From positions 1,020,001 through 1,052,000 of the forward strand of contig OW818668.1 in the NCBI GenBank assembly GCA_942493105.1: a DNA stretch of 32,000 bases. Reading direction: 5' to 3'. The notes beneath the pieces were generated by a model, which saw nothing but the letters and a program-made list of their open reading frames with translations, made no database searches and was not told the DNA's origin. This stretch comes from an uncultured Erysipelotrichaceae bacterium (GTDB lineage: Bacteria > Bacillota_I > Bacilli_A > Erysipelotrichales > Erysipelotrichaceae). Within the stretch, counting starts at the first letter, position 1. Each line of letters opens with the position of its first letter. Shown here piece after piece: positions 3,704 to 28,037 of this stretch. Made by a program: the position numbers and the translations under genes.

Positions 3704-3720
3704 ACTGAAGTGAAAACTTA

Positions 3721-4808: not shown

Positions 4809-4819
4809 AATGATTGGGA

Positions 4820-4828: not shown

Positions 4829-4835
4829 AGATTTA

Positions 4836-4851: not shown

Positions 4852-4859
4852 GAGGAACT

Positions 4860-5576: not shown

Positions 5577-5579
5577 TTC

Positions 5580-10069: not shown

Positions 10070-10078
10070 ACAAAAGTA

Positions 10079-10094
10079 TTGAAAGCGTTTTCGT
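10079..10094. promoter_or_regulatory. Operator-like motif, site C (TTGAAAGCGTTTTCGT)
   Basis: It lies 10 nt after the GH2-like stop and 45 nt before the SBP start. It overlaps a possible -35 TTGAAA (10079-10084), which sits 17 bp from a possible -10 TAAGAT (10102-10107). Of the five copies it is the closest to the cre consensus. Confidence 0.55.
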
Positions 10095-10138
10095 TTTTTG
10101 TTAAGATGTGTTTAGAATTAATCCATTAGGAGGAAACA

Positions 10139-11746
10139 ATGAAGAAAATTCTATTAGTATTGGTAGCGTTAGCATTCATTGGCTCTACATTAACTGGATG
10201 TTCAAGTTATAAGGCACTCGACAAGAAAATTGCCGGCGAGATCACCATTATGTTGTGGTCAGGCGACGGCGTTTATGCTGAGGACATTGGCCATAAGAAC
10301 TTGACACCGGCTGATTTAAAGGGTCAAAACAACGCTGCAGTCTATGCAGTTGCGAAAGCTTTCAATGAAGTTTATCCGAATGTTAAAGTAAATGTATTTG
10401 CCAAGAGCGCAGGACCAAATGATGGCGGCGTATCCTGGACACAAGAATTAGAAAACTTCAAAGCTGAACACGGAAAATATCCTGATGTTTATGCTTCAAC
10501 CGATTTGCCAGGCGATGTTGCCAGAGGCTTCGTTGCTGATTTGTCCGTATTTAAGAATGATCCTTTATACAAATCATTCAATAAATCCGTCATGGCTATG
10601 ATGAACTACTATGGCTTCCAAGCCGGTATCCCACAGTTCCTACAACCTTGGGGCGTTTACATCAATAAAGCTTTGGCTGAAGAATACAACTTAGATGTTC
10701 CAGATCCTGATTGGACCATCGATGAATACACAGATTTCGTTAACTCTGCTGACGGTGTAAATTTCTGGGGCTCGATGGACGTCGAAATGGACTTCATCCG
10801 TACTGGTGTTAAAACATTTGAACAACAGATGTTAAACTATAAAGGCACTGGAGATTTCGTCAACGTTGCTTCTGACGAAGTTAAAGCCTTGCTAGACTAC
10901 GTTCCGGATTGGGCTTCTTCAGCTGTTTATCCACAAAGAGATTTAGGTTTAGTATCCGATGAAGTTTTCAATGCCAACTGGGGTTGGAGCCATAAATTCT
11001 TCTTGGAAAACAAGATCTTGACCAATGCTGGCGATCCTTGGATGATGGGCGACTGTGCCAATCCAACTCCTGGACACTGGGCTGCATGTAAATCCACAGA
11101 CTGGGATATTTACCCACGTCCGTCTACTCCTTATCAGAAGAACACCGTTGGTGTCGTATTGGATCCAATGGCTGTCTATAACCAATGTATGAATGATGGA
11201 AATGTTGCTTGTTCAACAGAAGAAACAGCTCAGATCAAATTGGCTTATACCTTTGCTTCATTCTTCGCTGGTGATACATCTGCTTGGCAGGCTCGCGCCG
11301 ACCAAACCTTCATGGATGGAGAAGCTGAAAAAACATCCTTGAATGATTCCTTACCACTCGTTACCGGAAAAGCCTTTGATGAACAAATGGCCATCTGGTA
11401 TTCCACTCCTACCCATGCTCGTTTCAAAGATGCAGCTGTTATGCCAGGTTGGCATGAAGTTCTGAGAATCTGGGAAGCTGGCCAGTTCTGGGCTATTTCA
11501 GACAAAGCAACCGTTTGGACCTATAATTATGAAGGTGCAAGCCGTCCTATTCTATATGAATGGTTGAATGCTTGGCAGGTTGATATTGCTGGTGCAGTTC
11601 GTACAGATGCCAATTGGCCAAATGAAGTGAAGTCAAGATTAGCGGATTGGAACACACAGTTCAATGCCCGTTACCAAGAATCTTCAAAGAGTTTAGTCAA
11701 AGGCTTAAAAGATTTCTACGGCTTCAAAGACGCAGACTTCAAATAA
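10139..11746 (+). CDS. Extracellular solute-binding lipoprotein of a CUT1-type sugar ABC importer (large LplA/LipO-like type)
   Basis: Strong SD AGGAGG 5 nt upstream. Signal peptide with lipobox 'STLTGC'. 535 aa with SBP-like content ('ITIMLWSG', 'YGFQAGIPQ'). Followed by a strong terminator. Confidence 0.85.
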   Translation: MKKILLVLVALAFIGSTLTGCSSYKALDKKIAGEITIMLWSGDGVYAEDIGHKNLTPADLKGQNNAAVYAVAKAFNEVYPNVKVNVFAKSAGPNDGGVSWTQELENFKAEHGKYPDVYASTDLPGDVARGFVADLSVFKNDPLYKSFNKSVMAMMNYYGFQAGIPQFLQPWGVYINKALAEEYNLDVPDPDWTIDEYTDFVNSADGVNFWGSMDVEMDFIRTGVKTFEQQMLNYKGTGDFVNVASDEVKALLDYVPDWASSAVYPQRDLGLVSDEVFNANWGWSHKFFLENKILTNAGDPWMMGDCANPTPGHWAACKSTDWDIYPRPSTPYQKNTVGVVLDPMAVYNQCMNDGNVACSTEETAQIKLAYTFASFFAGDTSAWQARADQTFMDGEAEKTSLNDSLPLVTGKAFDEQMAIWYSTPTHARFKDAAVMPGWHEVLRIWEAGQFWAISDKATVWTYNYEGASRPILYEWLNAWQVDIAGAVRTDANWPNEVKSRLADWNTQFNARYQESSKSLVKGLKDFYGFKDADFK

Positions 11747-11758
11747 TCATGAGCTAAA

Positions 11759-11784
11759 GGCACCCTAAAAAGGGTGCCTTTTTT
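11759..11784 (+). terminator. Rho-independent terminator after the SBP gene
   Basis: GGCACCCT-aaaa-AGGGTGCC followed by TTTTTT. Confidence 0.8.
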
Positions 11785-11800
11785 AATGGTTTACTTAAAT

Positions 11801-11816
11801 ACGAAACCGCTTTCTT
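11801..11816. promoter_or_regulatory. Operator-like motif, site D (ACGAAACCGCTTTCTT)
   Basis: It abuts the putative -35 of the long operon promoter. It shares the ACGAAA-N-CG-N-TTTC core. Confidence 0.5.
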
Positions 11817-11843
11817 GATTTGTGAGATGAACTTTGGTAAAAT
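11815..11843 (+). promoter_or_regulatory. Putative promoter of the ~15-kb operon (-35 TTGATT, 17-bp spacer, extended -10 TGgTAAAAT)
   Basis: TTGATT at 11815-11820 and TGGTAAAAT at 11835-11843. The ATG at 11853 is only 9 nt after the -10, and no SD is present. Confidence 0.55.
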
Positions 11844-11852
11844 AATGATGAT

Positions 11853-13259
11853 ATGAAATCAAGCGCCATAAATACAAAAATAGTTGTCATCGGCGCAGGG
11901 AGCGCTTCCTTTGGATTAGTGAATTTAGGCGCCATCATACGTCATCCAAAATTAAAAGGAATCCACCTAAGTCTTGTTGATATCAATGAGTCAGGTTTGG
12001 GTTTGATCACTCAGTTGGCTCAACGGTTGAATCGTGAATGGGATGCGCAAATGACCATCACTTCGACTACTGATCGGACTGAAGTTTTATCAGGAGCAGA
12101 TTTTATCATCTTGTCGGTTGCGATCGATCGCGAACAATGTTGGAAACAGGATGTTGATATTGCTTTGAAATATGGCATACATCATTATGGTGAAAATGGT
12201 GGACCGGGTGCTTTGATGCATACTGCTCGTAATGTGGCTTTGATTTTGCCTATACTAAAAGATATAGAGCGATTGTGTCCTCAAGCTATGGTTTTAAATT
12301 TTACCAATCCTGTTCCACGCATCAATATAGCTGCTGCACGCTATACGAAAGTTAAAATGGTTGGGGTCTGTCATCAGATTGATTTTGGATATATGATGAG
12401 TGCTAAAATCCTACAAAGTGAGTTTGGATTTAAGATTCCCAAAGACTATCGCTTTACTTGGGATGGGGGCTGGGATCATTTCGGAAGCATGGTTCAACAG
12501 GCATCAGATCGCTTCGATATCTTAGCTGCAGGTATCAATCACTTTTCTTGGTATTTATCGATCAAAGACAAACAAACAGGTCAGGAACTCTTACCTTTGT
12601 TTAAAGAAAACTTTCTAAACAAATATCCTGAATTTGAACCTTATACCCGTAAGATCCTCAGTGTCTTCAAAGAATTGCCGATAGGTGGAGATTGTCATAT
12701 GTTGGAGTATTTGCCCTTTACCCATAACGATGCAAAGAAGAGTTGGGAACGATATGACATACAAATGTATCCGCTATTGAAAGCTGAAGCGGATCGCCAT
12801 GAAATGTGGAAAGAAATCGAAGAGATGGCCAGTGGCAAAGGCGATATCGATCATTTGCTGCATACCCATACTGAACGCGCTGAACAGATCATGTGTGCAA
12901 TGATGCATGATGAACCAATCATAGACCAAGCTGTGAACATTCCAAATCAAGGTTATATCACCAATCTTCCTGAAGGTGCCATCGTAGAAGTTCCCGCCAC
13001 GATCTCAAAAGAAGGTATAAAAGGCATGGTGGTTGGTCCTTTACCTGATATCGCAGCCCTGTGGTGTAGAAGACAGATTGAGGTCGCTGAAATGTCAGTT
13101 AAAGCCTCTGTGACAGGCGACAAAGCACTCATGCTTCAAGCCTTGTTGATGGATCCTATGATAGATGATATTGACCAAGCAGAAGCATTACTTGATGAAT
13201 ATTTATTGGCCAACGAAAAGTATCTTCCCCAGTTTTTTAAAAAAGGAGAATGGATATGA
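11853..13259 (+). CDS. GH4 family NAD+/Mn2+-dependent glycosidase (LplD / alpha-glycosidase-like; specificity unknown)
   Basis: Rossmann motif 'KIVVIGAGSASFG'. GH4 motifs 'LNFTNPV', 'VGVCHQ' and 'AGINHFSW'. 468 aa. The stop TGA overlaps the next ATG (ATGA at 13256-13259). Confidence 0.88.
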   Translation: MKSSAINTKIVVIGAGSASFGLVNLGAIIRHPKLKGIHLSLVDINESGLGLITQLAQRLNREWDAQMTITSTTDRTEVLSGADFIILSVAIDREQCWKQDVDIALKYGIHHYGENGGPGALMHTARNVALILPILKDIERLCPQAMVLNFTNPVPRINIAAARYTKVKMVGVCHQIDFGYMMSAKILQSEFGFKIPKDYRFTWDGGWDHFGSMVQQASDRFDILAAGINHFSWYLSIKDKQTGQELLPLFKENFLNKYPEFEPYTRKILSVFKELPIGGDCHMLEYLPFTHNDAKKSWERYDIQMYPLLKAEADRHEMWKEIEEMASGKGDIDHLLHTHTERAEQIMCAMMHDEPIIDQAVNIPNQGYITNLPEGAIVEVPATISKEGIKGMVVGPLPDIAALWCRRQIEVAEMSVKASVTGDKALMLQALLMDPMIDDIDQAEALLDEYLLANEKYLPQFFKKGEWI

Positions 13260-16159
13260 AAAGAATACCTGCCCTGTTCTTAACGATGATCTTGATCTTA
13301 AGTGGTCTTTCAGGTTGTCAAAGCAGCTCAAGTGTGAAAACCTACACCGATGCTCAGAAGGAAGAAGCATATGCTTATCTGCTTGAAGGCTTGAATCAAA
13401 GCACGCCTTTTTATGCGGATTATCAAAAAGAATTATCAAAACCAGGGATCCAAGAAGAAACTCAAATCAACACCGAGGCCTTGACGATTGGAGCCTATGG
13501 TTCGGTTGATTTTTCATTTAATCTTGCAAGCGCTTACACCTCTCAATTGCGTTTGGTGTATCAAGTTGCACCAGGCACTTTATTGTCTCCGATCTTATCA
13601 GTCAATATCAATGGAAAGTCACCTTTCGTAGAAGCTTTATCGATCGATGTGGCTTTGAATTGGTTTAGCGATACCTCACATTTTCCTTTGGATTCTTACC
13701 AAGACGAGTCCTTACCTTCACAAACTGTGGATACTTCAGTTAGATTCCTAGATTTCTATGATACTTTACACAGTAGTTCTCAACCTTTGAAGTTTGAATT
13801 TAAAGCAGGTGAGAACACAGTAAGTTTTACCAATGTTTCTTCGAGTCCACTGACGATTTTAAAAGTTAGTTTGATGCCGATCGATGAAAGACCAACTTAT
13901 GCTTCATATTCGGCAGGCTTAACGAAAACATCAAAACCCAATATTTTGGTTGACGCGGTACGTTATGCTTCAAAAAACTCATCGTTTGTTCGTTTGAGCT
14001 CATATGGTTCACCTTCAGTTTCTCCATATTCTGTGAAGACAAAACTATTAAATATCATTGATGGGATGGCTTGGAACAAAGCAGGGCAGTCTGTGTCTTA
14101 TACCGTGAATGTCGAAGAAAGCGGAGCATATGCTTTGGCTCTGCATTATTTAAACGACAAGACAGATTTCCAGGTCTTTAGATCGATTTTGATCGATGGG
14201 GTCATTCCCTTTAAAGAAGCACAAGCCTATGCTTTTGATTATACAGGTGGTGGTACTTGGCGCGTAGAAGTACTGCAAGATAACAATAAGAATCCGTATT
14301 TATTTGAACTATCAAAAGGAACCCATACGATTACGTTTGTGGCTGAATCTGAACCTTTGATTCCAGCCTTGACCACGATGCGTAATCTGATTGCTCATAT
14401 CAATGCCTTTGCATTGGATATACGAAAAATCACAGGAAGAGACATCGATCGTAACCGAACATGGAAATTGACCAATTTCTTACCAGAAACACAGAAGAAT
14501 CTAGAGTCTTATAAAGTTTTGATCAGTCGTTTGGTCAGTGATTTGTCTATTTATGCCAATAACGGGACCGCTTCTTCCGCTTTATCCTATATGATCAAAG
14601 CTTTGGTTAAGATAGATAAGATGCTTGAAAAACCTGATGAATTGCCTTTGTATCTGGATGATCTTTATAGTGCTACCGGTTCTGTTACAGAAATGCTAGG
14701 CAATACATTAACTTCACTTCAAAGTCAAGCCTTGTCTTTAGACAGCTTTGCGTTTTATACCGATAAACAACCGTTGATTGCGGAAGCATCATTTATGGAT
14801 GTTGCCAGTTCGTCGCTGCTTAGTTTCGTCAACTCTTTCACGTCAAAAAAATACATCGCTAAAAAAGATCCAAACGTTTTAAATGTCTGGGTCAATCGTT
14901 CGATTACTTATGTTGATACAATGCAGAAACTGGTCGATCAGACATTTACGGCACAAACTGGGATCAAAGTCAAGATTTCAGTCATGCCTGATGTCAATAA
15001 ACTGATCTTAGCTAATGCAACCAATGAAGCACCAGATGTCGCTTTGGGATTACCTTCTTATATGCCTTATGAATTTGCGATACGTGATGCTTCATATCAG
15101 CTGAGTTCTTTCCCTGACTTTTGGAAGACAGTGGCCAATATGCCAGCTGGATCCATGGTTCCATATGTCCTTAATGAACAAGTCTATGCAATTCCTGAAA
15201 CCTTAGATTTCCATGCGATCATTTATCGTAAAGACATTTTCGAGAATATTGATTTAACGGTACCTGACACTTGGCAAGATGTCATCGATATGTTACCTGA
15301 ACTTCAACGATATGGGATGAACTTCTATCATCTGACGGCAGGCGGAACTGCCTTGAAATGGTATTATCAGACCAGTCCTTTCGTTTATCAGTTTGAAGGT
15401 GAATTGTATGCGGATGATGGTTATAGCTCAAACATCGATTCGCCTGAAACGGTTGCGGGTTTAAAATTCATGACCGATTTGTTTATTAAATATGCGATTC
15501 CTGAACAAGTGGCTTCGTTTTATAACGGATTTAGATTTGGATCTTTACCGGTTGGGATCGCTGATTTTGCGACTTACCTACAAATCAAAAATGCAGCTTC
15601 TGAGCTGACTGGCTTATGGGCACTATCACCATATCCTGGTATTGAAAACAAAGAAGGTAAAATTCTTCGTTGGGACATCGTCAATGGGACTGCAGGCATC
15701 ATCTTTAAGAGTACTAAATTTGCAGACAATAGTTGGGACTTCATGAAGTGGTGGACTTCAACTGAGACTCAGACAGCTTTTGCGTATTCTCTGCAATCGA
15801 CTTATGGACCTGAATATGTCTGGTTATCCAGTAATCTGGAAGCGGTTCAAAATGCTCCGATCGATGCGGCCGATAAACAAGTCATGCTTGAACAATTCAA
15901 ATGGATCAATGATGTGCCTCGCTTACCTGGTGGCTATATGTTAGAACGAGGACTATCCGATATTTGGAACACAACTGTCCTACAAGGGACTCCGATCAGA
16001 GTTGCGATCGATCGTCAGAAGATCACCATCGATCGTGAAATTAAACGTAAGATGATTGAATTTGGATACATCAATGCGGATGGCAGTGCAGCTAAACCTT
16101 ATGTCATAAGAGGTGTCGATTGGATCCAAGCCCAAATCGATTCGGCTAAGGAGGATTGA
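13256..16159 (+). CDS. Giant lipoprotein: N-terminal ~535-aa extension (two CBM-like beta-sandwich segments plus a helical region) fused to a family-1 extracellular solute-binding domain
   Basis: ATG 13256 lies 8 nt after GGAG (ATG 13250 is too close to the SD). Lipobox 'LSGLSGC'. The C-terminal half from about nt 14870 is SBP-like ('LNVWVNRS', '[21 protein letters not shown]', '[15 protein letters not shown]'). The N-terminal half has no obvious family match by eye. Confidence 0.8.
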
Positions 16160-16160
16160 C

Positions 16161-17099
16161 ATGAAACTCTCACAACGCATCAGAAAAGCTTTTGTGGATA
16201 AAGCTGGCGAATCTACATTCATGGATTATATGACGATCTTTTGGATGTTGCTTCCGTATGCTTTGTTGTTCTCTTTGTTTGTTGCGATTCCTGTAGCTTT
16301 AGCCATAGGATTATCCCTGACTTACTTCAATACGATCCAGTTTCCTGAATTCAAAGGTTTCTTAAACTACATTACACTGTTGACTCAAGATGAAGTCTTC
16401 TTAAAATTCGTCTTGCCCAACACATTTAAATATGCCTTGATCATTGGACCAGGAGGTTATTTCCTGTCTTTTATCCTTGCGTGGATGTTGGCTCAAATCA
16501 CACCTAAAATGAGAACCATCATTGCTTTGGCTTTATATACCCCATCTATGGTTGGGGGTGTCTTTATCTCAGTCGTATGGAGAACCTTGTTTTCAGGGGA
16601 TGAGGCAGGCTATATCAATGCCTTACTGATGGAGTGGGGTTGGATCGTACGCCCCATTCAGTTCCTTCAATCGCCTGAATATCTCATGAATATTATGATC
16701 GTAGTAGGTCTTTGGTCAGCGATGGGGATTGGATTCTTGGCGATGTTGGCTGGGATCTTAAACACCAATGAAGAACTCTATGAAGCCGCCTATATCGATG
16801 GGATCAAGAATAAACTTCAAGAAGTCATCTACATCACCATTCCTTCCATGCGCTCACAGATGTTGTTTGGAGCTGTCATGGCGATCGTTGGGGCATTCAA
16901 CAGCGGCTGGATCGGAGTGGCTTTATCAGGTACAAATCCTACCCCTCAATATGCAGGCCAGCTCATCATCAATCATATTGAAGATTACGGCTTTATTCGA
17001 TATGAGATGGGTTATGCGGCTGCGGTATCTGTGGCATTACTGCTGATCATCTGGAGTTTTTCTAAAGTAGCTTACCGTTTATTCGGAGAAAGGGACTGA
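16161..17099 (+). CDS. Sugar ABC transporter permease (MalF/LplB-like), pair 1
   Basis: ATG 16161 lies 6 nt after AAGGAGG. Six TM helices. EAA loop '[23 protein letters not shown]'. Confidence 0.9.
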
Positions 17100-17100
17100 T

Positions 17101-17970
17101 ATGGCTTTCCAAGGTACGAAAATCAATCCTAAGCGATTTGATAAGTCACAGCTCAAGTTCTACATCGTTTTAGTTCCTATGGCTTTATTCATGGTCTTAC
17201 CGGTCATCTATATCGTCAACCAAGCCTTTAAACCTCTTGATGAACTCTTTATGTTTCCTCCTCGTTTCTTTGTCATAAAACCAACCTTTAAGAACTTCAC
17301 AGATCTGTTTAGGACAGCTTCTACGACAGGGGTTCCTATGTCTCGGTATCTGTTTAATTCCATCGTAGTGACCTTGGTTACAGTCTTTGCGAACATCTTG
17401 GTAACTGCTTCAAGTGCTTATGTCTTAAGTAAAAAGAAATTCAAACTCAAAGGCAGACTCTTTGCCTTAAATCAGATTGCCTTGATGTTTGTGCCGATCG
17501 CAGTAGCGATCCCACGCTTCTTGATCATTAAAAATGTTGGATTAAGCGATAATTTCTTAGCACATATCGTTCCTTTATTGGCCATGCCGATTGGGTTATT
17601 TTTAGTTAAACAATTCATGGATGACATACCAGATGCCTTAATAGAAGCTGCTCGATTAGATGGTGCCAATGATTTTCAGATCTTACTTAAGATCGTCATG
17701 CCTTTGGTTAAACCTGCTTTAGCGACTGTTGGGATCTTGACCTTCCAAGTCGTATGGAATGCGACTGAAAGTTCAAGTTTATACATATCCGATGAGACCT
17801 TAAAAACATTTGCCTTTTATCTAAGTACTTTGACCGCTTCTTCAAATACGATCGCAGGGGCAGGGATGTCTGCAGCAGCCGGTTTGATCATGTTCTTGCC
17901 TAATCTTATTATCTTTATGTTGCTGCAATCTAAGGTCATGAATACCATGACTCATTCTGGGATCAAGTAG
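17101..17970 (+). CDS. Sugar ABC transporter permease (MalG/LplC-like), pair 1
   Basis: Starts 1 nt after the upstream stop. EAA loop '[26 protein letters not shown]'. Six TM helices. Confidence 0.9.
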
Positions 17971-17978
17971 GTGCACCT

Positions 17979-20003
17979 ATGAAAAAGACACTTACACTGA
18001 TAAGTTTGATCATCCTATTGATGAGCATGAGTATCAAAGTCAACGCTTCTTCAGCGACTTCTCCAACTCGTACCTTAGACTTCAAATATAACTTAGTATG
18101 GACCCAAGATGCTTATTTACCTCAGTTAACGGTTACCAACCTTGGTTTAAAGAATCCAACTGATGCGATCATGGATCCCAATGATCATCTCTACATTGCT
18201 GATCGTGGTAACAAACGCATCGTGGAGTATGATACGACGACCAATACTTTGGTTAGAGTCATTACTCATCCTGCACTAAAAACCCCTACAGGTATTTTCT
18301 TAACCCAAAGCGGAGATATTTATGTTGCTGATACTACTGCAGAAGCTGTTATTCGATTTGATAAAGACGGCAACTACATCGAACAATTCAATCGTCCTAC
18401 CACGGCCTCTTTCGGCGATACTCCGTATAAACCCGCTAAAGTAGCGGTCGATAATCGAGGCAATCTGTATATCGTTTCAGAAGGCGTTTATAACGGAATC
18501 ATACAGTTATCATCGAGCGGAGAATTCTTAGGCTATTTCTCTTCCAATAAAGTTTCTTTGAATATTCTTCAGATGCTTCAAGATATCTTTTATACCGATG
18601 CTCAAAAAGCCTTATTGACAGGCAGAGTTCCAACGACCTTCTCCAATGTGTTTATGGATGAAGACGGGATCTTATATTCAACCACCATGGGTGGCATGAT
18701 GCATGGCGTTAAAAAACACAATACGGCTGGCCAAGATATGTTGAGCGAACGCTTTATTTGGGGAGCTGATGACTTCTCCGACATAACAGTCGACAAAGAT
18801 GGCATCATTTATGCGACTGCCAAATCGGGTCAGATCTTCGTTTATACCAATGATGGCCAATTCATATTCTTCTTTGGTTCATTCTATGGAGAATCGGATA
18901 TTGCTGGACTCTTTAGTTCATTGGTATCCATTGCGGTAGATTCTAAAGGCCAATTGTGGACGCTTGATTCTGAGAAATCATTCATTCAGTCTTTTAAAGC
19001 TACAGAGTATGCCCAAAGCATATATAAAGCCACCAAGCTGTTTTCTGAAGGAAGATATGATGAAGCTACAGTCATCTGGAATGATGTCTTAAGGCTCAAT
19101 CAAATGTCTGTGGTGGCTCATAACGGTATAGGTGCGAATCTCTTGTATCAGCAACGTTATAAAGAAGCCATGCTTCATTTTAGAGTCGCAGGCAATCGTT
19201 TCAATTACTCGCAAGCTTTTTGGGAAGTACGTAATACTTGGCTACAATCCCAGCTCAGTTTGATTTTAGGTTCATTTGTGGTTGTGTTTGGATCTTTGAG
19301 ATTGACACGCAAAGCTCGTAAAAAATCAAAATTCATCGCAAAAATGAAATCTTACTATAATCAATTCATCCATTATCGATTTGTCTCAGATGTCTTACTG
19401 GTGCTTAAAGTCATGCGTCATCCAATCGATAGTTTCTATGACATCAAAGCTAAGAAGGCAGGATCATTACTGAGCGCAAGCGTGGTCTATATCGGATTCT
19501 TCCTGATCTTTATTTGGTATACCTTAAGCAAAGGATTTATTTATCAATATCTTTTGATTGAAGATATTGATATGACAGCTGTCGTCATTGGTTTCTTCTC
19601 GCTGACCTTATTGTTTGTATTGTGTAATTATCTGGTGTCTTCGATCAATGATGGGGAAGGCGGTTTATTCGATTTGTTTAAGATGATGGCATATAGTTTT
19701 GGACCGATGATGATTGGGTATGTCCTGATCATTGGTTTATCCTATGTCTTTACTGAAAATGAAGCCTTCTTCTTACAAACGATTGAACAGATCGCTGTCA
19801 TTTGGACAGGCATCAATCTGTTTATGGGTATTCAAGAAACGCATAATTATGAAACAAAAGCAGCATTCAAAAGCATCATCATGACGATCTTGTTTATGTT
19901 GTTGATTGCGGTCATCTTAATGATCGTCATCTTGATGACTGAACAAGTCTATATGTTCTTTGAAGCTCTGTTCAAGGAGGCGCTACGTAATGTACTTTCC
20001 TAA
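17979..20003 (+). CDS. Secreted NHL-repeat beta-propeller plus TPR-like segment fused to a C-terminal Yip1-like polytopic membrane domain (function unknown)
   Basis: Signal peptide 'LLMSMSIKVNA/SS'. About six NHL-like blades ('HLYIADRGNKRIVEYD', 'DIYVADTTAEAVIRFDKDG', 'NLYIVSEGVYNGIIQLSSSG', 'GILYSTTMGG', 'GIIYATAKSGQIFVYTNDG', 'QLWTLDSEKSFIQSF'). TPR-like 'ATKLFSEGRYDEATVIWNDVLRLNQ...YQQRYKEAMLHF'. About 6 TM helices follow from about nt 19240, with 'HPIDSFYDIK' typical of Yip1-domain starts. Confidence 0.6.
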   Translation: MKKTLTLISLIILLMSMSIKVNASSATSPTRTLDFKYNLVWTQDAYLPQLTVTNLGLKNPTDAIMDPNDHLYIADRGNKRIVEYDTTTNTLVRVITHPALKTPTGIFLTQSGDIYVADTTAEAVIRFDKDGNYIEQFNRPTTASFGDTPYKPAKVAVDNRGNLYIVSEGVYNGIIQLSSSGEFLGYFSSNKVSLNILQMLQDIFYTDAQKALLTGRVPTTFSNVFMDEDGILYSTTMGGMMHGVKKHNTAGQDMLSERFIWGADDFSDITVDKDGIIYATAKSGQIFVYTNDGQFIFFFGSFYGESDIAGLFSSLVSIAVDSKGQLWTLDSEKSFIQSFKATEYAQSIYKATKLFSEGRYDEATVIWNDVLRLNQMSVVAHNGIGANLLYQQRYKEAMLHFRVAGNRFNYSQAFWEVRNTWLQSQLSLILGSFVVVFGSLRLTRKARKKSKFIAKMKSYYNQFIHYRFVSDVLLVLKVMRHPIDSFYDIKAKKAGSLLSASVVYIGFFLIFIWYTLSKGFIYQYLLIEDIDMTAVVIGFFSLTLLFVLCNYLVSSINDGEGGLFDLFKMMAYSFGPMMIGYVLIIGLSYVFTENEAFFLQTIEQIAVIWTGINLFMGIQETHNYETKAAFKSIIMTILFMLLIAVILMIVILMTEQVYMFFEALFKEALRNVLS

Positions 20004-22353
20004 ATTGAAATTTAAACAGGTCATTCCTGTTGTGTTGGGGGTGGTGATGAGTGTTCAAGCCATATATGCAACCTATATTCCCAATGCACATGATACAAAA
20101 CTGCCTCCGGATACGATTACGTATGAGATCATGGATCCCAGTAGTTTTGAGTTGCTTTATGAGACAACTGACTTTAAATATTACTTTAAAGATGAACGAG
20201 ATGTGATGGCCGTTGTGGATAAACGCAATGGATATACCTGGAAGACAGGTCTAGACATCGCTTTCAACAAGACTTTAGAAGATGCCTGTGATTTGGTTCC
20301 TGATGATCAAAAGATCAACTGTGAGCCTTTAGAAGATCGTTTAAATACAACTTATACGGGTATGGCCAATTCATTGATCACAGTTGAATATTATGATGTA
20401 TCAAAGTCGATCAAACGTATTTCCAGTGCTTCGATCAACAATGTGAAGAGTACTTTAGGCAAAGTCAATAATTCTGACGATCATTATCGTTTGGATGTCA
20501 CTTTCTCAGAGATCCAATTGAATGTAAAAGTTCATCTGTTGTTTGATGAAGATGGCTTTACTTTAGAAATACGCGATGAAGAGATCACAGGTGATGGTCA
20601 ATCTGTTTTAGCTGCAATTCAATTGATGCCTTTCTTTGGGGCATCAGGCGGACAGAAACTATATTGGGATAATGAATTGGGTGACTTTAAGAAAAAAGTC
20701 CCCAATAAGATGATTGAAGGTTATGTCTTGGTTCCGGATGGTCCAGGCGCTTTGATTCGCTTTGAAGACAGAAATGTAGGATTGACAGCATATACTGGGG
20801 ACATCTATGGTAAAGACCCTGGTGAATGTCAATATTTCTACACCAATGAACAAGGCTTCTTTCCTTTCAAGAACCCAACGATGCCGATTTATGGGATCGC
20901 TCACGGAAATCGCCAAGCTGCCTTTATTGCTTTCTCAACCAAAGGCGCACCATATATGACACTTAATGTTTCTCCAGAAGAAGACATTACTTACTATACT
21001 TATGCGTATCCTCGTTTTGAATACAATCTCTTATTTCATCAAGTCTACAATAAACGAGGTGATGGTTACTTCACATTGATGAAAGAAAGACGTCACTATG
21101 ATGTGGGTATGCGTTATGAATTCTTAGCCAATGATACCGATCGACCTGCAGATTATGTCGGGATGGCATTGACTTATCGTGATTATTTACTCAAGAACAA
21201 GTTATTACCAGATCAAACTCAAAATAAAGATGACATCGGCATTCGTTTAGACTTTGTGATGGCGGATGTTAAAAAGAGTATCTTAGGGGTTGAAGATGTT
21301 GTGGTGACCAGAGCATCCGATGTCAAGAAAATTCTAAATCAACTTCATGAAGATGGCGTCTTCAACATCAACAGTGGATTATTAGGTTGGCAATCTGGTG
21401 GTATCACCTCAGGTCATCCTGGAAAAACAGAGTGGTCTAATGCGATTGGCTCAAAGAGTTCCTTTATGGATCTTATCGAAACAGCCACAGCATTAGGTTA
21501 TGATGTTTCGCTGAGCCAAGACTACATCAAGATCCATCGCGATCAAGTCAATTATGAAACCTCTGCTGCTCGACATGTCAACAGTTGGTATTTGGAAACA
21601 CGGATGTGGGGAGAATATCCAGTCACTGAGTTTGGTTTTGCGAAACCAACGAAATCTGCGGCTTGGATCAAATCTCAAAGTACTGCATTGGCTAAACTCA
21701 AGGTCACTTCGTTTACGATCGATGGGATCTCAAGCACTTTGACCAGTGATTATGATGGTGGCTTTACGTCGCTTGAAGAGTCCATTGCGTTATATCAGAA
21801 AGTTCTTTCAGAACTAGATCCAGCCATCAAGATATCGATGAATGGACCCAATGATTATCTATGGAACTATGTTGACCGCTACTTAAGTGCACCTGTCTTT
21901 TCAACTCAGTTCTTGATTGAAACAGATACCGTGCCTTTCTTACAGCTGGTCTTAAACGATACGATGGAAATGTATGCACCGTATTCTAATTTTTCGTTTT
22001 ATACTCAAAAAGATGTCTTAAGGATGATCGATTATAATCTTTATCCTTCCTTTGCGTTATCCCAAGATCCTGCTTATGTCTTAGCTTTGACCAATGCGAA
22101 TAAATTTTATTCTACAGAATTCACAGAATATGAGTTGTTGATCAATACGATCTATGATGAAGTCAATGGTTCACTAAAAGAAGTCATTGGTGATCAATGG
22201 GTCGATCGTGAAGTTTTAGCCAATGGTATCATCCTTAACACTTATGCTTCAGGAAAACAGATCTTGATCAACTATACTCAAGATCCAACGACTTACCAAG
22301 GAAAAACGGTTAGAGCCCTCTCAGCGATGGTTTTCAAGGAGCTTGCCCAATGA
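19990..22353 (+). CDS. N-terminally membrane-anchored or secreted 787-aa protein of unknown function with glycoside-hydrolase-like architecture
   Basis: ATG 19990 lies 9 nt after AAGGAGG and overlaps the upstream gene by 14 nt. Hydrophobic N-terminus 'VIPVVLGVVMSVQAIYA'. No motif I can assign to a named CAZy family. Alternating beta/alpha-like segments and a C-terminal beta-rich tail 'GIILNTYASGKQILINYTQDPTTYQGKTVRALSAMVF'. Confidence 0.5.
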   Translation: MYFPKLKFKQVIPVVLGVVMSVQAIYATYIPNAHDTKLPPDTITYEIMDPSSFELLYETTDFKYYFKDERDVMAVVDKRNGYTWKTGLDIAFNKTLEDACDLVPDDQKINCEPLEDRLNTTYTGMANSLITVEYYDVSKSIKRISSASINNVKSTLGKVNNSDDHYRLDVTFSEIQLNVKVHLLFDEDGFTLEIRDEEITGDGQSVLAAIQLMPFFGASGGQKLYWDNELGDFKKKVPNKMIEGYVLVPDGPGALIRFEDRNVGLTAYTGDIYGKDPGECQYFYTNEQGFFPFKNPTMPIYGIAHGNRQAAFIAFSTKGAPYMTLNVSPEEDITYYTYAYPRFEYNLLFHQVYNKRGDGYFTLMKERRHYDVGMRYEFLANDTDRPADYVGMALTYRDYLLKNKLLPDQTQNKDDIGIRLDFVMADVKKSILGVEDVVVTRASDVKKILNQLHEDGVFNINSGLLGWQSGGITSGHPGKTEWSNAIGSKSSFMDLIETATALGYDVSLSQDYIKIHRDQVNYETSAARHVNSWYLETRMWGEYPVTEFGFAKPTKSAAWIKSQSTALAKLKVTSFTIDGISSTLTSDYDGGFTSLEESIALYQKVLSELDPAIKISMNGPNDYLWNYVDRYLSAPVFSTQFLIETDTVPFLQLVLNDTMEMYAPYSNFSFYTQKDVLRMIDYNLYPSFALSQDPAYVLALTNANKFYSTEFTEYELLINTIYDEVNGSLKEVIGDQWVDREVLANGIILNTYASGKQILINYTQDPTTYQGKTVRALSAMVFKELAQ

Positions 22354-23378
22354 AAATCTTTAAGAAAAAAGATGCGACGATGATTGCTAAACCTAAGAAA
22401 AAGAAAAAAAGTGGTTTTAAAGAAATAAGCAACCGTTCAGGGTATAAGTTCTTCTTGCCTTGGATGATTGGATTCTTGATTTTTACCGCTTTTCCGTTTG
22501 TGTATACGATCTATTTGAGTTTCAATCAAGTTAAGCTCACTGTTTTTGGTTGGCAAGCCACTTTCAACGGAATTGCGAATTATGTTTCAGCACTTCTAAG
22601 AAATCCGGATTATACCCCAGCCTTGATTCAGTTCATCTTAGCGGAAGTGGTCTATGTGCCTGTCATCGTGACCGTGGCCTTGATCCTTGCGATCTTGATG
22701 AATGGCGATTTTAAATTCAGGACTGTATTTAGAGTCATTTATTTCTTGCCGGTCATCGTTATTTCAGGGACCGTCATGACACAGTTGATGAGCAGTGGGA
22801 ATGTCCAATTGGGAAATGTAAGACAAGTCTTTATCTTTCAGATTTTATCTTCATACTCACCAGCTTTAGCGGACATCGTTGTATTCCTATTCAATAACTT
22901 TGCGATCGTCTTATGGTTCTCAGGGATCCCAATCGTCTTATTCCTCAATGGTCTGCAAAAGATCAACACTTCATTATTTGAAGCAGCTCAGATCGATGGG
23001 GCAACCTCATGGCAGATCTTATGGAAAATCACTTTACCGATCATACGACCCATCATCTTGGTTGCGACCATCTTTACGATCGTTCAATTGGGGATGTTTC
23101 CCATCAATCCCGTCTACGGGATGATCCAGACCGCCATCTTCGATACAGTGGCAGGACTTGGGGTCGCATCGGCTTATGCTTGGATCTACTCGCTGACGGT
23201 CATCATCTTACTGGGCATTGCCTTCTTCTTACTGAAAGATCATTCTAAAGATTATCAATATGTGGATGTGGTCAGACTACAAGATATTAAACTTCAAAAA
23301 ATGAGAAAACGCGTTAAACGGCAGCAAGAATGGAATGAATTCTTTAGAAAGAAAGGCGTCAAACATGGAAAAAACTAA
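22350..23378 (+). CDS. Sugar ABC transporter permease (MalF-like), pair 2, with a basic cytoplasmic C-terminal tail
   Basis: ATGA overlap with the upstream gene; SD AAGGAG 8 nt upstream. EAA loop 'EAAQIDGATSWQILWKITLPIIRPI'. Tail 'KLQKMRKRVKRQQEWNEFFRKKGVKHGKN'. Confidence 0.9.
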   Translation: MKIFKKKDATMIAKPKKKKKSGFKEISNRSGYKFFLPWMIGFLIFTAFPFVYTIYLSFNQVKLTVFGWQATFNGIANYVSALLRNPDYTPALIQFILAEVVYVPVIVTVALILAILMNGDFKFRTVFRVIYFLPVIVISGTVMTQLMSSGNVQLGNVRQVFIFQILSSYSPALADIVVFLFNNFAIVLWFSGIPIVLFLNGLQKINTSLFEAAQIDGATSWQILWKITLPIIRPIILVATIFTIVQLGMFPINPVYGMIQTAIFDTVAGLGVASAYAWIYSLTVIILLGIAFFLLKDHSKDYQYVDVVRLQDIKLQKMRKRVKRQQEWNEFFRKKGVKHGKN

Positions 23379-24324
23379 ACGAATCTGGGCTTTAGTCAAA
23401 CGAAAACTGTTGGGTTATAACCTAAGTGACGGCTATCTCTATAAGACAGCTGTCTATATCTTACTGATTGCGATCGCGTATGTTTTCTTGTATCCGCTTT
23501 TACGCATGATTTCATATTCCTTCATGTCGACTCAAGACATCATCAATCCTGAGATCGACTGGATCCCAATCAGTCCAACCTTGACCAATTTAAAAGTTGC
23601 TTGGACCGTTATGAGTATGCCGTGGACTTTATTGAACTCACTGTGGTTTGCGGGAGCTTTAGCATTGGCTCAAACTTTGATTTCAGCCCTAACAGGGTAT
23701 GCGTTTGCCCGTTATGAATTTAAGTTTAAAAGTTTCTGGTTTGGGATGGTATTGATGAGTTTCGTTATTCCAATTCCAGTTGTTTTGATTCCACGTTGGA
23801 TGATGTTTGTCACCACGCAAAATATCTTAGATTTTAAGTTGATTGGAACTGTTATTCCGCAGCTGATGTTGGCGATCGCAGGTCAAGGTGTGTATTCAGC
23901 CATCTTGATCTTGATCTTCTATAACTTCTTTAAGATGATTCCAGTTGTTTTGGATGAAGCGGCTAAGATCGATGGAGCCAGTAATCTACAAGTCTTTTAT
24001 CACATCATCCTAAAGATGTCGGTACCCACCATCATCACCGTCTTTCTGTTTGCCTTTGTTTGGAATTACAATGAAACCTATGTGACGGGAACCTTCTTGC
24101 GTTCTGCCTTAAAAGTCATGCCGATGCAGTTGGGACTCTTTGACTCCATCTTTGAGAAGATGTCTGCCCCGATCCCAAATGCGCCTGGAGGGCAATTTAG
24201 GCTGAATGAATCGTATAAGATGGCCGCAACACTGATCACGATGGCACCTATGATGATCATGTATCTATTCGTTCAAAAACAATTTGTCGAAGGGATTGAA
24301 AAAACAGGGATTACAGGAGAATAA
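23365..24324 (+). CDS. Sugar ABC transporter permease (MalG-like), pair 2
   Basis: EAA loop 'EAAKIDGASNLQVFYHIILKMSVPTI'. Six TM helices. The start is ambiguous (ATG 23365 or 23335); both overlap the upstream gene. Confidence 0.88.
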   Translation: MEKTKRIWALVKRKLLGYNLSDGYLYKTAVYILLIAIAYVFLYPLLRMISYSFMSTQDIINPEIDWIPISPTLTNLKVAWTVMSMPWTLLNSLWFAGALALAQTLISALTGYAFARYEFKFKSFWFGMVLMSFVIPIPVVLIPRWMMFVTTQNILDFKLIGTVIPQLMLAIAGQGVYSAILILIFYNFFKMIPVVLDEAAKIDGASNLQVFYHIILKMSVPTIITVFLFAFVWNYNETYVTGTFLRSALKVMPMQLGLFDSIFEKMSAPIPNAPGGQFRLNESYKMAATLITMAPMMIMYLFVQKQFVEGIEKTGITGE

Positions 24325-24325: not shown

Positions 24326-25330
24326 TTGGATAAAATCAGAGCCGTTAATTTAGGGGGTTGGTTGGTTTTAGAGCATTGGATGAGGCCTACATTATTTGAA
24401 GGCATCAAAGGCTATGATGAGACTGAGTTCAGTCTGCAAGCCAAGGATCTTAAAAAACAACTCGATGATCATCGAGAAAGCTTCATCGTTGAAGAAGACT
24501 TCAAATGGATCAAAGACCACGGCTTAAACGTGGTCAGAGTTCCTTATCCGTATTGGTTGTTTGGCGATATTGAGCCCTATTATGGCTGTGTCGATAAGTT
24601 AGATCAAATCATGGATTGGGCACATAAATATGATTTAAAAGTACTTTTAGATTTACACACAGCACCTGGTTGTCAAAATGGTTTTGACAATGGAGGTCAG
24701 TTGGGTGTTTTGACTTGGCATACCAAACCTGAAAATCTTGCTTTAACTTTAGAGATCTTAGATAAAGTTGCCTTAAGATATAAGAATCATCCGGCTTTAT
24801 GGGGCATGCAGGTGCTCAATGAACCGCATTGGACCTATGAGATCTCGTTTATGGAAGCCTTCTATGAAGATGCGTATCGTCATCTTAGAGCCATCCTCAA
24901 ACCTGAAACTGAGATCGTTTTTCATGATGCCTTTAGACACAAAGCTTGGAAGTCTTTCTTTGAGAATAAGACCAATGTCATCTTGGATCTTCATCTGTAT
25001 CAAGGCTTCGATGAGAAATTCGCTCAAGCAGGAATAGATAAAAACGTCGTGTATCCTTTAGAACATTACCCCGCAATCCTCAGTGAGATATCATCCTATG
25101 TGCGTTGTATCGTAGGGGAATGGTCACTGGGTCTTAATCCCAAAAACTTTAAAGACGTGGATGACTTTAATAAAACCTGTGGTTTAAGAGCCTTTGGAGC
25201 CACTCAACTCTTAGCCTTTGAGCAGTGTTATGGTTGGGTTTTTTGGAACTATAAAATTGAAGATGTAAACAGTGGCTGGAACTTTAAGAGTCTGGTTGAG
25301 AAAGGGATCTTACCTCATGATTATCGCTAA
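24326..25330 (+). CDS. GH5 exo-beta-1,3-glucanase-like enzyme (fungal Exg1-like subfamily), cytoplasmic
   Basis: Motifs 'RAVNLGGWLVLEHWMRPTLF', 'LLDLHTAPGCQNGFDNGG', 'MQVLNEP' (acid/base) and 'VGEWSLG' (nucleophile). Likely TTG start at 24326, 5 nt after AGGAGA and 1 nt after the permease stop. The track ORF start at 24284 is also a TTG and lacks an SD. Confidence 0.88.
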   Translation: MDKIRAVNLGGWLVLEHWMRPTLFEGIKGYDETEFSLQAKDLKKQLDDHRESFIVEEDFKWIKDHGLNVVRVPYPYWLFGDIEPYYGCVDKLDQIMDWAHKYDLKVLLDLHTAPGCQNGFDNGGQLGVLTWHTKPENLALTLEILDKVALRYKNHPALWGMQVLNEPHWTYEISFMEAFYEDAYRHLRAILKPETEIVFHDAFRHKAWKSFFENKTNVILDLHLYQGFDEKFAQAGIDKNVVYPLEHYPAILSEISSYVRCIVGEWSLGLNPKNFKDVDDFNKTCGLRAFGATQLLAFEQCYGWVFWNYKIEDVNSGWNFKSLVEKGILPHDYR

Positions 25331-27107: not shown

Positions 27108-27126
27108 AAAGCGCTTTGCGCTTTTT
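27106..27126. terminator. Bidirectional terminator between the convergent GH3 lipoprotein and GH16 lipoprotein genes
   Basis: AAAAAGCGC-ttt-GCGCTTTTT with A-run and T-run flanks on both strands. Confidence 0.7.
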
Positions 27127-27146: not shown

Positions 27147-28037
27147 CTACTTCTTAGTTGCCAAGATGGCTGGCATTTGAGGACTTTGGTATACACGGAT
27201 GTAATCGACCTGCATGGTTTGTGGCCAACCTGTTTCTGCAATCCCTTGAGCTCCGCCCCAATCTCCTCCAACGGCCGTATTGACGATCAAGAAGAATTTG
27301 CGGTCAAAGGGCCATGCTTTGGAAGTCGGACAATTCAAATAAAGTCCAGGTGCGAAGCGATACATGAACTTACCGTCGATGTAGAATCTGATCTGATCCG
27401 GTAACCACTCTACAGTATAAAGATGAAAGGCATCCCCATCTTTGATCGTTGTATCAAAGCCTTGCTGAGTGCCTTTTTTATGGTTATAGGAAGCGGTATG
27501 AACCGTGCCGTAGACTCGATCAGGGGCATATCCTACATATTCTACGATGTCGATTTCACCTGAATTAGGCCAAGTGCCATAGGCAGATGAACTTGTCGGC
27601 ATCATCCATACGGCAGCCCAAGAACCTTTATTTTCTGGCATTTTCGCATAGACATCGATCTTGCCGTATAAGAAGTCTGCTTTATTGCGGGTGATCATGC
27701 GCGATGAGGTATAGTTCTTGCCTTCAAAGGTTTCTTTGCGGATCTCGATGTTCAATAAGCCGTCTTTGACAGTCGAATTAAGGCCGTTGGTGTAGTATTG
27801 AAGTTCATTATTGCCCCAACCGTTGCCGCCGATTTCATAGGTCCAATTGTCTAAGTTGACTTGTGTCCCATCAAACTCTTCAGCCCATACCAAATCATAG
27901 GTCAAACTGTTGAGATCATAGGTATAACCCATGGCTTTACAGGCCGTGGTTGAAGGTTCAGGCTCTTCTTTTTTGATACAGCTGCTGAGTGAGGAGATCG
28001 CAATGATCCCAATCAATAGGGTCTTTAGTGTTTTCAT
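27147..28037 (-). CDS. GH16 endo-beta-1,3-glucanase (laminarinase) lipoprotein, surface exposed
   Basis: Lipobox 'SLSSC'. Catalytic motif 'GEIDIVEYVG' plus 'WAAVWMM' and 'NTAVGGDWGG'. 296 aa. Confidence 0.9.
   Translation of the reverse strand: MKTLKTLLIGIIAISSLSSCIKKEEPEPSTTACKAMGYTYDLNSLTYDLVWAEEFDGTQVNLDNWTYEIGGNGWGNNELQYYTNGLNSTVKDGLLNIEIRKETFEGKNYTSSRMITRNKADFLYGKIDVYAKMPENKGSWAAVWMMPTSSSAYGTWPNSGEIDIVEYVGYAPDRVYGTVHTASYNHKKGTQQGFDTTIKDGDAFHLYTVEWLPDQIRFYIDGKFMYRFAPGLYLNCPTSKAWPFDRKFFLIVNTAVGGDWGGAQGIAETGWPQTMQVDYIRVYQSPQMPAILATKK

Follow-up and report, generated by a model that had tools for sequence, protein, structure and literature searches.

A conserved ABC sugar importer cassette with two candidate extracellular accessory proteins in an Erysipelotrichaceae glycan locus

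Introduction

The subject of this report is a stretch of 32,000 nucleotides (nt) of the Erysipelotrichaceae contig OW818668.1, hereafter the window, in whose numbering all positions are given. Between 13256 and 24324 the window contains seven tightly coupled genes that encode an unusually large solute-binding lipoprotein, two pairs of ATP-binding cassette (ABC) permeases and, between these pairs, two large membrane-anchored proteins, namely an NHL/TPR/Yip1 protein (TPR, tetratricopeptide repeat) and a member of the DUF5696 family. We favor, with moderate confidence, the view that these genes form the transport core of a β-1,3-glucan operon and represent one instance of a modular ABC importer with two dedicated extracellular accessory proteins. 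Among the evidence for this view is the co-inheritance of the two anchored proteins with the permease genes that follow them.

A textbook type-I ABC sugar importer consists of a binding protein, two membrane subunits, and two ATPases. Those belonging to the CUT1 family (TC 3.A.1.1), such as the MalEFG-type systems, often employ in the Bacillota a shared ATPase of the MsmX/MsmK type. Gram-positive polysaccharide utilization loci (PULs) are defined by the clustering of a degrading enzyme, a transporter, and a regulator, and in those described thus far a single binding protein is combined with two permeases, while Yip1 and DUF5696 proteins are absent.

Organization and conservation of the cassette

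Listing and translation of the open reading frames (ORFs) reproduced the seven genes exactly, and a reading of the junctions bore out the coordinates, overlaps, and gaps given in an earlier description of this DNA made from its letters (the original prediction). That description set the core at seven genes. The seven are real, and an eighth, encoding a second solute-binding lipoprotein, must be added on the basis of its position in related genomes. The products of the eight genes are as follows.

10139 to 11746, plus strand: second solute-binding lipoprotein, 535 residues (lipobox LTGC, distant match to family-1 binding proteins in the PDB, synteny)
13256 to 16159, plus strand: giant solute-binding lipoprotein, 967 residues (Pfam SBP_bac_8, AlphaFold2 model)
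16161 to 17099, plus strand: permease B (PermB), MalF/GlcT-like, six membrane helices, EAA loop at nt 16782 (Pfam/NCBIfam, hydropathy)
17101 to 17970, plus strand: permease C (PermC), MalG/UgpE-like, six membrane helices, EAA loop at nt 17644 (Pfam/NCBIfam, hydropathy)
17979 to 20003, plus strand: NHL/TPR/Yip1 membrane protein, 674 residues (Pfam NHL and Yip1, propeller matches in the PDB, hydropathy)
19990 to 22353, plus strand: DUF5696 protein, 787 residues, anchored at its N-terminus (Pfam PF18952, AlphaFold2 model, Foldseek)
22350 to 23378, plus strand: permease F (PermF), divergent MalF/UgpA-like, EAA loop at nt 22980 (NCBIfam, hydropathy)
23365 to 24324, plus strand: permease G (PermG), MalG/UgpE-like, EAA loop at nt 23956 (Pfam/NCBIfam, hydropathy)

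The start codon of the giant binding protein gene at 13256 overlaps the stop codon of the preceding GH4 (glycoside hydrolase family 4) gene in an ATGA sequence, as does that of PermF at 22350 with the stop codon of the DUF5696 gene. Gaps of 1 nt are found at 16160 and 17100, a gap of 8 nt precedes 17979, and overlaps of 14 nt occur at 19990-20003 and 23365-23378. Shine-Dalgarno-like sequences (AAGGAGG/AGGAG) lie upstream of 16161 and 19990.

Gene order was examined in two sets of loci labeled uniformly with hidden Markov models. The genome set, from a profile scan with one genome per species, comprised the best 80 of at least 573 DUF5696 relatives. The metagenome set comprised 80 loci with 28-54% identity to the seed, from a scan seeded with four distant DUF5696 sequences. 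In all, 171 DUF5696 genes were surveyed, and the counts that follow refer to loci whose contig reaches far enough. Represented in the genome set are the Erysipelotrichaceae (best identity 93%), Acholeplasma, Haloplasmataceae, Izemoplasmatales, Lachnospiraceae, Oscillospiraceae, Christensenella, Vallitaleaceae, Defluviitaleaceae, Halanaerobiales, and Treponema.

The full order of second binding protein, giant binding protein, PermB, PermC, NHL/Yip1, DUF5696, PermF, and PermG was observed in 53 of the 80 genome loci. The remaining 27 show sub-runs of the same order, nearly all of them cut by a contig end, and not a single locus violates it. A Yip1 domain is encoded directly upstream of DUF5696 in 75 of 76 loci and an NHL propeller in 65 of 66; two permeases follow DUF5696 in all 73, and the giant binding protein with two permeases precedes it in all 55. 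Look-ups from the side of the giant binding protein, made for nine homologs at 24-35% identity, led to the same module in every case. At such distant loci the second binding protein usually lies after PermG, and the NHL and Yip1 regions are often split. Every domain is under purifying selection.

The metagenome set gave a similar picture for the downstream half, with Yip1 upstream of DUF5696 in 61 of 66 loci, NHL in 58 of 60, and two permeases downstream in 65 of 66. The giant binding protein and first permease pair lie upstream in 32 of 47. Thirteen of these 47 are half modules that consist of NHL/Yip1, DUF5696, PermF, and PermG together with an ordinary binding protein, and in the other two the giant binding protein is present and the first pair absent. 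Half modules were noted at L118, L125, L131, L134, L140, L142, L143, L155, and L158, and several of them could be traced to Limnochordia or unclassified Bacillota metagenome-assembled genomes. Their binding proteins have leaders of the signal-peptidase-I type and no lipobox, and their DUF5696 proteins fit the Pfam model better than does that of the window.

From this synteny, the invariant core is NHL/Yip1-DUF5696-PermF-PermG. Because neither the giant binding protein nor the first pair accompanies it in 13 of 47 metagenome loci, the two anchored proteins appear to belong with the downstream transporter rather than to bridge two equal pairs, as had been thought at the outset. Whether four permeases and a binding protein of more than 900 residues are constant companions was a question posed at the outset; in the genome set the giant binding protein and first pair were present in 55 of 55 loci, and this company breaks down in those same half modules. 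ABC permeases do accompany both proteins across distant lineages, down to ∼20% identity. The earlier contention that the two proteins are not passengers is thus sustained by their co-inheritance with permeases in both sets. That they might be unrelated genes inserted by chance between two transporters is effectively refuted by the synteny survey, given that the order is kept across the 171 DUF5696 genes, where the contig allows, in many families of Bacillota and Mycoplasmatota as well as in Treponema.

The recognizable glycoside hydrolase (GH) genes surrounding the module are far less constant. Distant modules (20-35% identity) adjoin GH43, GH53, GH172/DUF4185, or no GH gene, and GH38 is also seen elsewhere. 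The β-glucan specificity first ascribed to the module accordingly does not extend to its other versions, and such changes of GH family by clade should be expected of an import cassette that is adaptable to different substrates. Since the position of NHL/Yip1 and DUF5696 beside PermF/PermG is fixed as the GH genes change, since NHL and Yip1 are fused in some loci and split in others, and since the core survives loss of the giant binding protein and first pair, the two proteins would seem to work with the downstream transporter regardless of the glycan.

This constancy bears on the main rival explanation, in which the proteins are partners in a pathway and not in a complex. Here the locus would encode two independent CUT1 importers, DUF5696 would be an anchored glycosidase with non-canonical residues that trims glycans before uptake, NHL/Yip1 would be a free-standing glycan binder, and gene order would be kept by co-regulation. 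Gram-positive glycan loci do commonly mix surface enzymes with ABC importers, and co-regulation could maintain such adjacency. Co-regulated enzymes, however, are usually shuffled or swapped according to substrate, whereas these two proteins stay beside PermF/PermG to ∼20% identity while all the recognizable GHs around them change. A polytopic Yip1 domain would also be an odd anchor for a mere binding protein. We regard this explanation as rather unlikely.

The module is found in the wall-less lineages Acholeplasma, Izemoplasma, and Haloplasma, which points to a function at the membrane and not at the wall; a peptidoglycan-related role was considered and rejected on account of these carriers. 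Likewise, the proposal that the arrangement is confined to monoderm bacteria had to be abandoned. Modules occur in Treponema, Halanaerobiales, and Limnochordia loci, and the full modules in the first two rule out a strictly monoderm adaptation. On some contigs two modules, complete or partial, lie side by side (L083, at ∼51-7578 and 10001-21270; also L126 and L156), as though the entire cassette had been duplicated and the copies had then diverged.

The DUF5696 protein

The match of the 787-residue protein to DUF5696 (PF18952) scores 481 bits, where the cut-off is 25.6, and extends over positions 4-611 of the 612 in the model; at E ≤ 10 this was the sole Pfam model to match. Searches of all PDB chains with phmmer and with a 66-sequence DUF5696 profile returned nothing relevant. 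A single hydrophobic helix is located at the N-terminus. The AlphaFold2 model, calculated from the 66-sequence alignment, has a predicted local distance difference test score (pLDDT) of 89.7 and a predicted template modeling score (pTM) of 0.90. The predicted fold begins with the membrane helix, which is followed by a large β-sandwich, a (β/α)8 barrel, and a C-terminal β-sandwich.

A Foldseek comparison with the PDB placed GH129 first (ZgGH129, 5opq/8rzk, and NagBb, 5wzr), followed by GH101, GH36, and GH31. For the GH129 structures 5opq and 5wzr the E-values range from 4e-29 to 1e-22, with a target TM-score of about 0.72 and 11-13% identity. The succession of β-sandwich, (β/α)8 barrel, and β-sandwich is shared with GH129 (the α-N-acetylgalactosaminidase NagBb and the 3,6-anhydro-D-galactosidase ZgGH129) and with GH101. 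DUF5696 differs from these enzymes in that there is no sequence or profile match to them, no strictly conserved carboxylate pair is found at the expected strand ends, and the protein is membrane-anchored and encoded beside ABC permeases.

Possible catalytic-site positions were judged by conservation together with predicted secondary structure. Conserved across 16 sequences that span the family are Gly 244, Pro 249, Asp 250, Gly 251, Gly 253, Tyr 273, Pro 299, Gly 302, Tyr 389, and Ala 393, and, further on, Asp/Glu 421, Thr 440, Gly 466, Gly 471, Tyr 623, Pro 649, Phe 650, Asn 667, Leu 677, Asp/Glu 681, and Asn 761. Thr 440, Gly 466, Gly 471, Tyr 623, and Asn 667 follow predicted barrel strands, Asp/Glu 421 lies within the strand formed by residues 418-423, and Asp 250 is positioned in a loop of the N-terminal domain.

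The pathway explanation draws on these data as well. The three-domain fold is glycosidase-like, many polar and aromatic residues are invariant within the β-glucan clade, and the acidic positions Asp 250, Asp/Glu 421, and Asp/Glu 681 are conserved family-wide; the canonical catalytic pair, on the other hand, is not conserved. The designation of the protein as "GH-like" in the original prediction is therefore apt for its fold, which is nearest to GH129/GH101, and doubtful with regard to its being an enzyme.

Several variants of the protein were encountered. Long forms of ∼956-962 residues are encoded in Izemoplasmatales/Tenericutes loci L066 and L076. P0064, of similar length, contains an extra region of ∼170 residues with a weak match to CBM_4_9 (21.6 bits, below threshold). 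At L125 (9980-12733), one cluster at 90% identity mixes 918-residue DUF5696 proteins with sugar permeases of 306-319 residues, which hints at a fusion, a read-through product, or a clustering artifact.

The NHL/TPR/Yip1 protein

The 674-residue protein contains a signal peptide, an NHL propeller at ∼40-340, a TPR-like region at ∼341-415, a membrane helix, and a Yip1 domain at ∼477-650. In Pfam the NHL match has an E-value of 1e-15, the Yip1 match (PF04893, residues 477-646) scores 49.1 bits against a cut-off of 28.6, and the TPR signals are weak. The hydropathy profile shows about six membrane helices. The closest solved propellers in the PDB are the PknD/Pizza NHL propellers. NHL and Yip1, which are fused in the window, are separate adjacent genes in many other loci. 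The predicted topology places the propeller and TPR region outside the membrane, together with all of the DUF5696 body.

To our knowledge, YknW is the only bacterial Yip1 protein that has been studied. This Bacillus protein is reported to modulate assembly of the ABC transporter complex YknWXYZ (PMC4887032), and for that reason the most economical guess is that the Yip1 domain of the module docks on or organizes a translocator. Both systems encode a polytopic Yip1 protein together with ABC transporter genes. YknWXYZ is a MacB-type exporter with a membrane-fusion protein, whereas the partner here is a type-I sugar importer, and the Yip1 domain of the module is usually fused to, or encoded after, a large extracellular NHL propeller and TPR region.

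The YknW precedent (PMC4887032) can also be taken to mean that NHL/TPR/Yip1 and DUF5696 are biogenesis or anchoring factors that insert, stabilize, or position PermF/PermG or the binding proteins and never contact substrate. TPRs and β-propellers are typical protein-protein interaction modules, most of the family-wide invariant DUF5696 residues are glycines, prolines, or aromatics, and PermF-type subunits are unusually divergent, falling below the Pfam threshold here and giving weak or absent matches in other loci. Nevertheless, the 790-residue glycosidase-like ectodomain with its clade-specific polar residues and occasional insert resembling a carbohydrate-binding module (CBM) points to contact with carbohydrate, and from one substrate clade to another the propeller and DUF5696 show a divergence similar to that of the binding proteins. 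A chaperone-like role is, in our estimation, improbable.

Still less likely is a sensory or regulatory device in which the propeller and TPR region sense glycan and signal through the Yip1 domain to the transporter or to transcription. In favor of such a device, one of the nearest solved propellers is the extracellular sensor domain of the kinase PknD, and LacI regulators recur nearby. The NHL/Yip1 protein, however, has no cytoplasmic output domain, with only ∼50 cytoplasmic residues, the LacI regulators already cover cytoplasmic sugar sensing, and DUF5696 would be left unexplained. A role of this kind is considered very improbable.

The two solute-binding proteins

Both binding proteins carry lipoboxes. 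In the giant protein, the Pfam model SBP_bac_8 covers residues 564-846 only of 967. Its AlphaFold2 model (pLDDT of 89.3 and pTM of 0.83) is predicted to contain β-sandwiches at ∼69-207 and ∼230-364, a helical bundle at ∼366-529, and a MalE-like domain at ∼542-935. The latter resembles oligosaccharide binders such as CbpB and the sophoro-oligosaccharide binding protein. A fold search with the full model returned binding-protein matches only and was silent on the N-terminal domains. Among 38 homologs, CBM_35 was detected in 19, Golvesin_C in 21, and CBM_6 in 1, so that in the homologs the N-terminal sandwiches appear CBM35/CBM6-like, with a putative function in glycan binding.

An exhaustive search with residues 31-530 identified 1249 representative clusters (50% identity) at E ≤ 1e-3; the stricter limit of E ≤ 1e-10 left 996. 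Almost all of these are proteins of 920-1070 residues in which the match lies at the same N-terminal position, and thus, by sequence criteria, the region defines a large family. These figures rest on the exhaustive search of representatives; a word-indexed search with the N-terminal region alone became saturated and gave at least 15 matches, mostly partial.

The 535-residue lipoprotein has no Pfam match, but a search of the PDB showed it to be a distant relative of family-1 binding proteins (22hh_A, E = 9e-11). In all 55 genome loci that extend far enough, its gene immediately precedes that of the giant binding protein, and because of this position we count it as part of the module, which by synteny is one of eight genes. 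In the window, the GH4 gene sits between the two binding-protein genes. This insertion was seen in only a few Erysipelotrichaceae loci (L001, L003, L006, L008, and L070). GH4 is an NAD-dependent family, and the best match of the window enzyme is to an α-galactosidase subfamily model, which is odd for a β-glucan locus.

The permease pairs and the ATPase

Each of the four permeases has six hydrophobic helices, and each pair consists of one MalF-like and one MalG-like subunit. The EAA loops claimed for both pairs are all present, at the four positions listed above. BPD_transp_1 is matched above threshold by PermB, PermC, and PermG; PermF scores 20.1 bits against a cut-off of 26.4 and resembles the MalF/UgpA/GlcT models of NCBIfam. 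The two pairs are mutually 24-26% identical. This value rules out a recent duplication of one transporter, which had been considered, and because it is so low the pairs are taken from sequence to be ancient paralogs.

No Walker-A or LSGGQ motif was found in any of the six frames of the window, in agreement with the first reading, in which none was seen, and an ORF for an ABC ATPase lies within 10 kb in only 2 of 80 related genome loci. It is plausible, as suggested from the start, that a shared MsmX-type ATPase is encoded elsewhere. The locus thus has the family-1 lipoprotein binding protein and the MalF/MalG-like subunits with EAA loops of a CUT1 importer, and no ATPase in cis.

The operon, the neighboring enzymes, and the substrate

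Tight coupling continues beyond the module: the GH5 gene probably starts 1 nt past the PermG stop codon, and the GH3 gene, from its likely start, overlaps the GH5 gene by 14 nt. The features of the window that surround the module are the following.

3794 to 4789, plus strand: LacI-family regulator of the locus (domain match; LacI genes recur beside the module elsewhere)
11759 to 11784, plus strand: hairpin resembling an intrinsic terminator, GGCACCC-TAAAAA-GGGTGCC followed by T6 (read from the sequence)
11815 to 11843, plus strand: promoter-like site ahead of the GH4-to-GH3 operon, TTGATT-17 nt-TAAAAT with an upstream TG (extended -10) (consensus match only)
11853 to 13259, plus strand: GH4 enzyme, cytoplasmic (Pfam Glyco_hydro_4 and Glyco_hydro_4C)
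24326 to 25330, plus strand: GH5-like enzyme without a signal peptide, likely start TTG at 24326 (Pfam Cellulase)
25317 to 27107, plus strand: GH3 lipoprotein, surface β-glucosidase-type, lipobox LMSC, likely start at 25317 (Pfam)
27106 to 27126, plus strand: terminator-like hairpin closing the operon (scan and reading by eye)
27147 to 28037, minus strand: GH16 lipoprotein, laminarinase-type endo-glucanase, with lipobox (Pfam Glyco_hydro_16)

In a scan for promoters and terminators, the counts within the operon were not above those in shuffled sequence. By eye, convincing hairpins stand only at 11759-11784 and 27106-27126, and for this reason the genes from about 11850 (GH4) to 27107 probably form one transcript. 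The first hairpin and the promoter-like site that follows it separate the 535-residue binding-protein gene from the downstream 11-gene operon. Given these two elements, that gene may be transcribed separately from the operon or attenuated relative to it, a pattern common among genes for binding proteins that are strongly expressed. An identical 14-nt start/stop overlap occurs at three junctions of the operon (19990, 23365, and 25317).

The upstream flank encodes GH30, a major facilitator superfamily (MFS) transporter, a ROK kinase, LacI, GH16, GH3, GH2, and GH4, and the downstream flank GH5, GH3, GH16, and GH1. Altogether the locus contains two GH16, two GH3, and single GH30, GH5, GH1, GH2, and GH4 genes, together with the ABC, LacI, and ROK genes. 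Degrading enzymes, transporter, and regulator are hence clustered in the manner of a Gram-positive PUL. Besides the two anchored proteins, only four proteins of the locus look exported, all of them lipoproteins, namely both binding proteins, the GH3 enzyme encoded downstream, and the GH16 enzyme of the minus strand. This arrangement fits cleavage by endo-acting enzymes at the surface, import, and finishing in the cytoplasm.

GH16 is the commonest neighbor of the module and follows PermG in most loci of the β-glucan clade. In many such loci it is followed in turn by a protein of ∼1040-1090 residues, which is absent from the window (L018, 15413-18541; L032, 16803-19988; many Lachnospiraceae and Acholeplasma). 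One copy shows a weak match to the GH94 superfamily (E = 6e-6), and the protein may be a β-1,3-glucan phosphorylase. In Treponema, L067 holds a copy of the β-glucan-clade module with two GH38 α-mannosidase-like genes (14219-20009) where other loci have GH16, which suggests that the substrate was switched within a closely related cassette. A DUF6198 membrane protein is encoded near the module both in the window (883-1560, beside the MFS and GH30 genes) and in the distant locus L084 (241-930). This recurrence may be a coincidence.

Proposed mechanism

The following scheme is proposed. The surface lipoprotein enzymes GH16 and GH3 would cut the polysaccharide, and the CBM35-like domains of the giant binding protein would hold the polymer or long fragments close to the membrane. 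Its MalE-like domain and the 535-residue binding protein would then pass oligosaccharides to the two translocators. Both translocators would be driven by a shared MsmX/MalK-type ATPase from elsewhere. Cytoplasmic GH1, GH3, GH16, GH2, GH4, and GH5 enzymes and the ROK kinase would complete the degradation. NHL/Yip1 and DUF5696 would be dedicated accessory components, physically associated with the PermF/PermG transporter. By analogy with YknW, the Yip1 membrane domain would dock on or organize the translocator, and the propeller and the glycosidase-like pocket of DUF5696 would bind, and possibly trim, oligosaccharide that is thereby handed to the transporter and not lost by diffusion.

A number of points weigh against this scheme. 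Asp 511 and Asp 587, which occupy the sites where the carboxylates of GH-D, GH129, and GH101 enzymes would be expected, are less than 90% conserved among 66 close homologs and are missing in several distant members of the family. Because the expected catalytic carboxylates are not conserved, it is doubtful that DUF5696 is a canonical retaining glycosidase, and we lean towards binding or non-canonical chemistry. A conserved ligand pocket in the barrel is likely because most conserved polar residues follow barrel strands, where the ligand sites of TIM barrels lie; the pocket is placed there by the logic of secondary structure. The giant binding protein of the window itself has no Pfam match to a CBM or to Golvesin_C. 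That the module of the window serves a β-1,3-glucan of the laminarin type is suggested by the families of neighboring enzymes, specifically the GH16, GH30, and GH3 neighbors and, in other loci, the ∼1050-residue neighbor with its weak GH94-superfamily match. The two large surveys started from DUF5696, and the look-ups started from giant binding proteins, rather than from NHL/Yip1. Finally, the analogy with YknW is a loose one, as its partner is an exporter of a different ABC class.

A stronger form of the accessory-protein model can be entertained as well. In this version, the module would represent a new class of ABC sugar importer in which NHL/TPR/Yip1 and DUF5696 are integral subunits, forming a membrane-anchored extracellular vestibule on PermF/PermG that captures glycan chains and feeds them processively to the transporter. 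In the full module, the CBM-bearing giant binding protein and a second translocator would join them. The whole would be an ABC counterpart of the SusCD capture machine, with DUF5696 a glycosidase fold recruited to handle substrate in a non-catalytic or non-canonical way. We put this forward only tentatively, as a possibility.

Comparison with known systems

With CUT1 importers the module shares lipoprotein family-1 binding proteins, MalF/MalG-like heterodimers with EAA loops, and an ATPase encoded outside the operon. It differs from them in that a single conserved cassette encodes two permease pairs as well as two binding proteins, in the ∼530 extra N-terminal residues of the giant binding protein (two CBM35-like sandwiches and a helical bundle), and in two conserved anchored proteins that have no counterpart in described CUT1 systems.

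Both the Sus-like systems of the Bacteroidota and the Gram-positive PULs of the Lachnospiraceae combine a surface endo-glycanase, glycan-binding modules, a transporter, and a regulator in one substrate-specific locus, and a cassette is re-used for different glycans, as is the case here. The module differs from Sus-like systems in that it has no SusC/SusD pair and transport is by ABC importers. No domains of SusC-like TonB-dependent transporters or SusD-like lipoproteins were detected in the window proteins scanned, and any likeness to Sus would be functional only. The Sphingomonas importer AlgM1M2SS similarly takes up large glycan fragments with the aid of two binding proteins, AlgQ1 and AlgQ2. 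It has a single permease pair, an ATPase in cis, and neither a CBM-bearing binding protein nor a Yip1 or DUF5696 partner. The published study of a Blautia producta β-glucan locus describes an ordinary transporter with one binding protein.

The original prediction knew of no functional description of such a module, and none was found in the searchable literature: a search in which most subscription journals lay outside the reach yielded nothing on DUF5696/PF18952, or on Yip1 in connection with sugar ABC systems or PULs. The region is thus of a known kind, a CUT1 ABC importer in a Gram-positive glycan locus, and its conserved architecture with two extra proteins is apparently undescribed.

Conclusions

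To the usual scheme of an importer the module adds two co-inherited, anchored extracellular proteins, and it couples a binding protein to CBM-like domains by fusion, which suggests that the sugar importers of many gut and environmental bacteria have extra parts. Its carriers include gut and rumen Lachnospiraceae (Roseburia and Acetatifactor), Bacillota from digesters, wall-less Mycoplasmatota, and Treponema from termites. The modularity of the cassette provides natural experiments, in that the same core is found beside different GHs and the giant binding protein is missing from the half modules. If the accessory proteins act in capture or hand-over, they would explain how bacteria lacking SusCD limit the loss of oligosaccharides at their surface. 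If true, the model would also provide a function for DUF5696 and for bacterial Yip1 proteins beyond YknW, and it would improve the prediction of glycan use from genomes.

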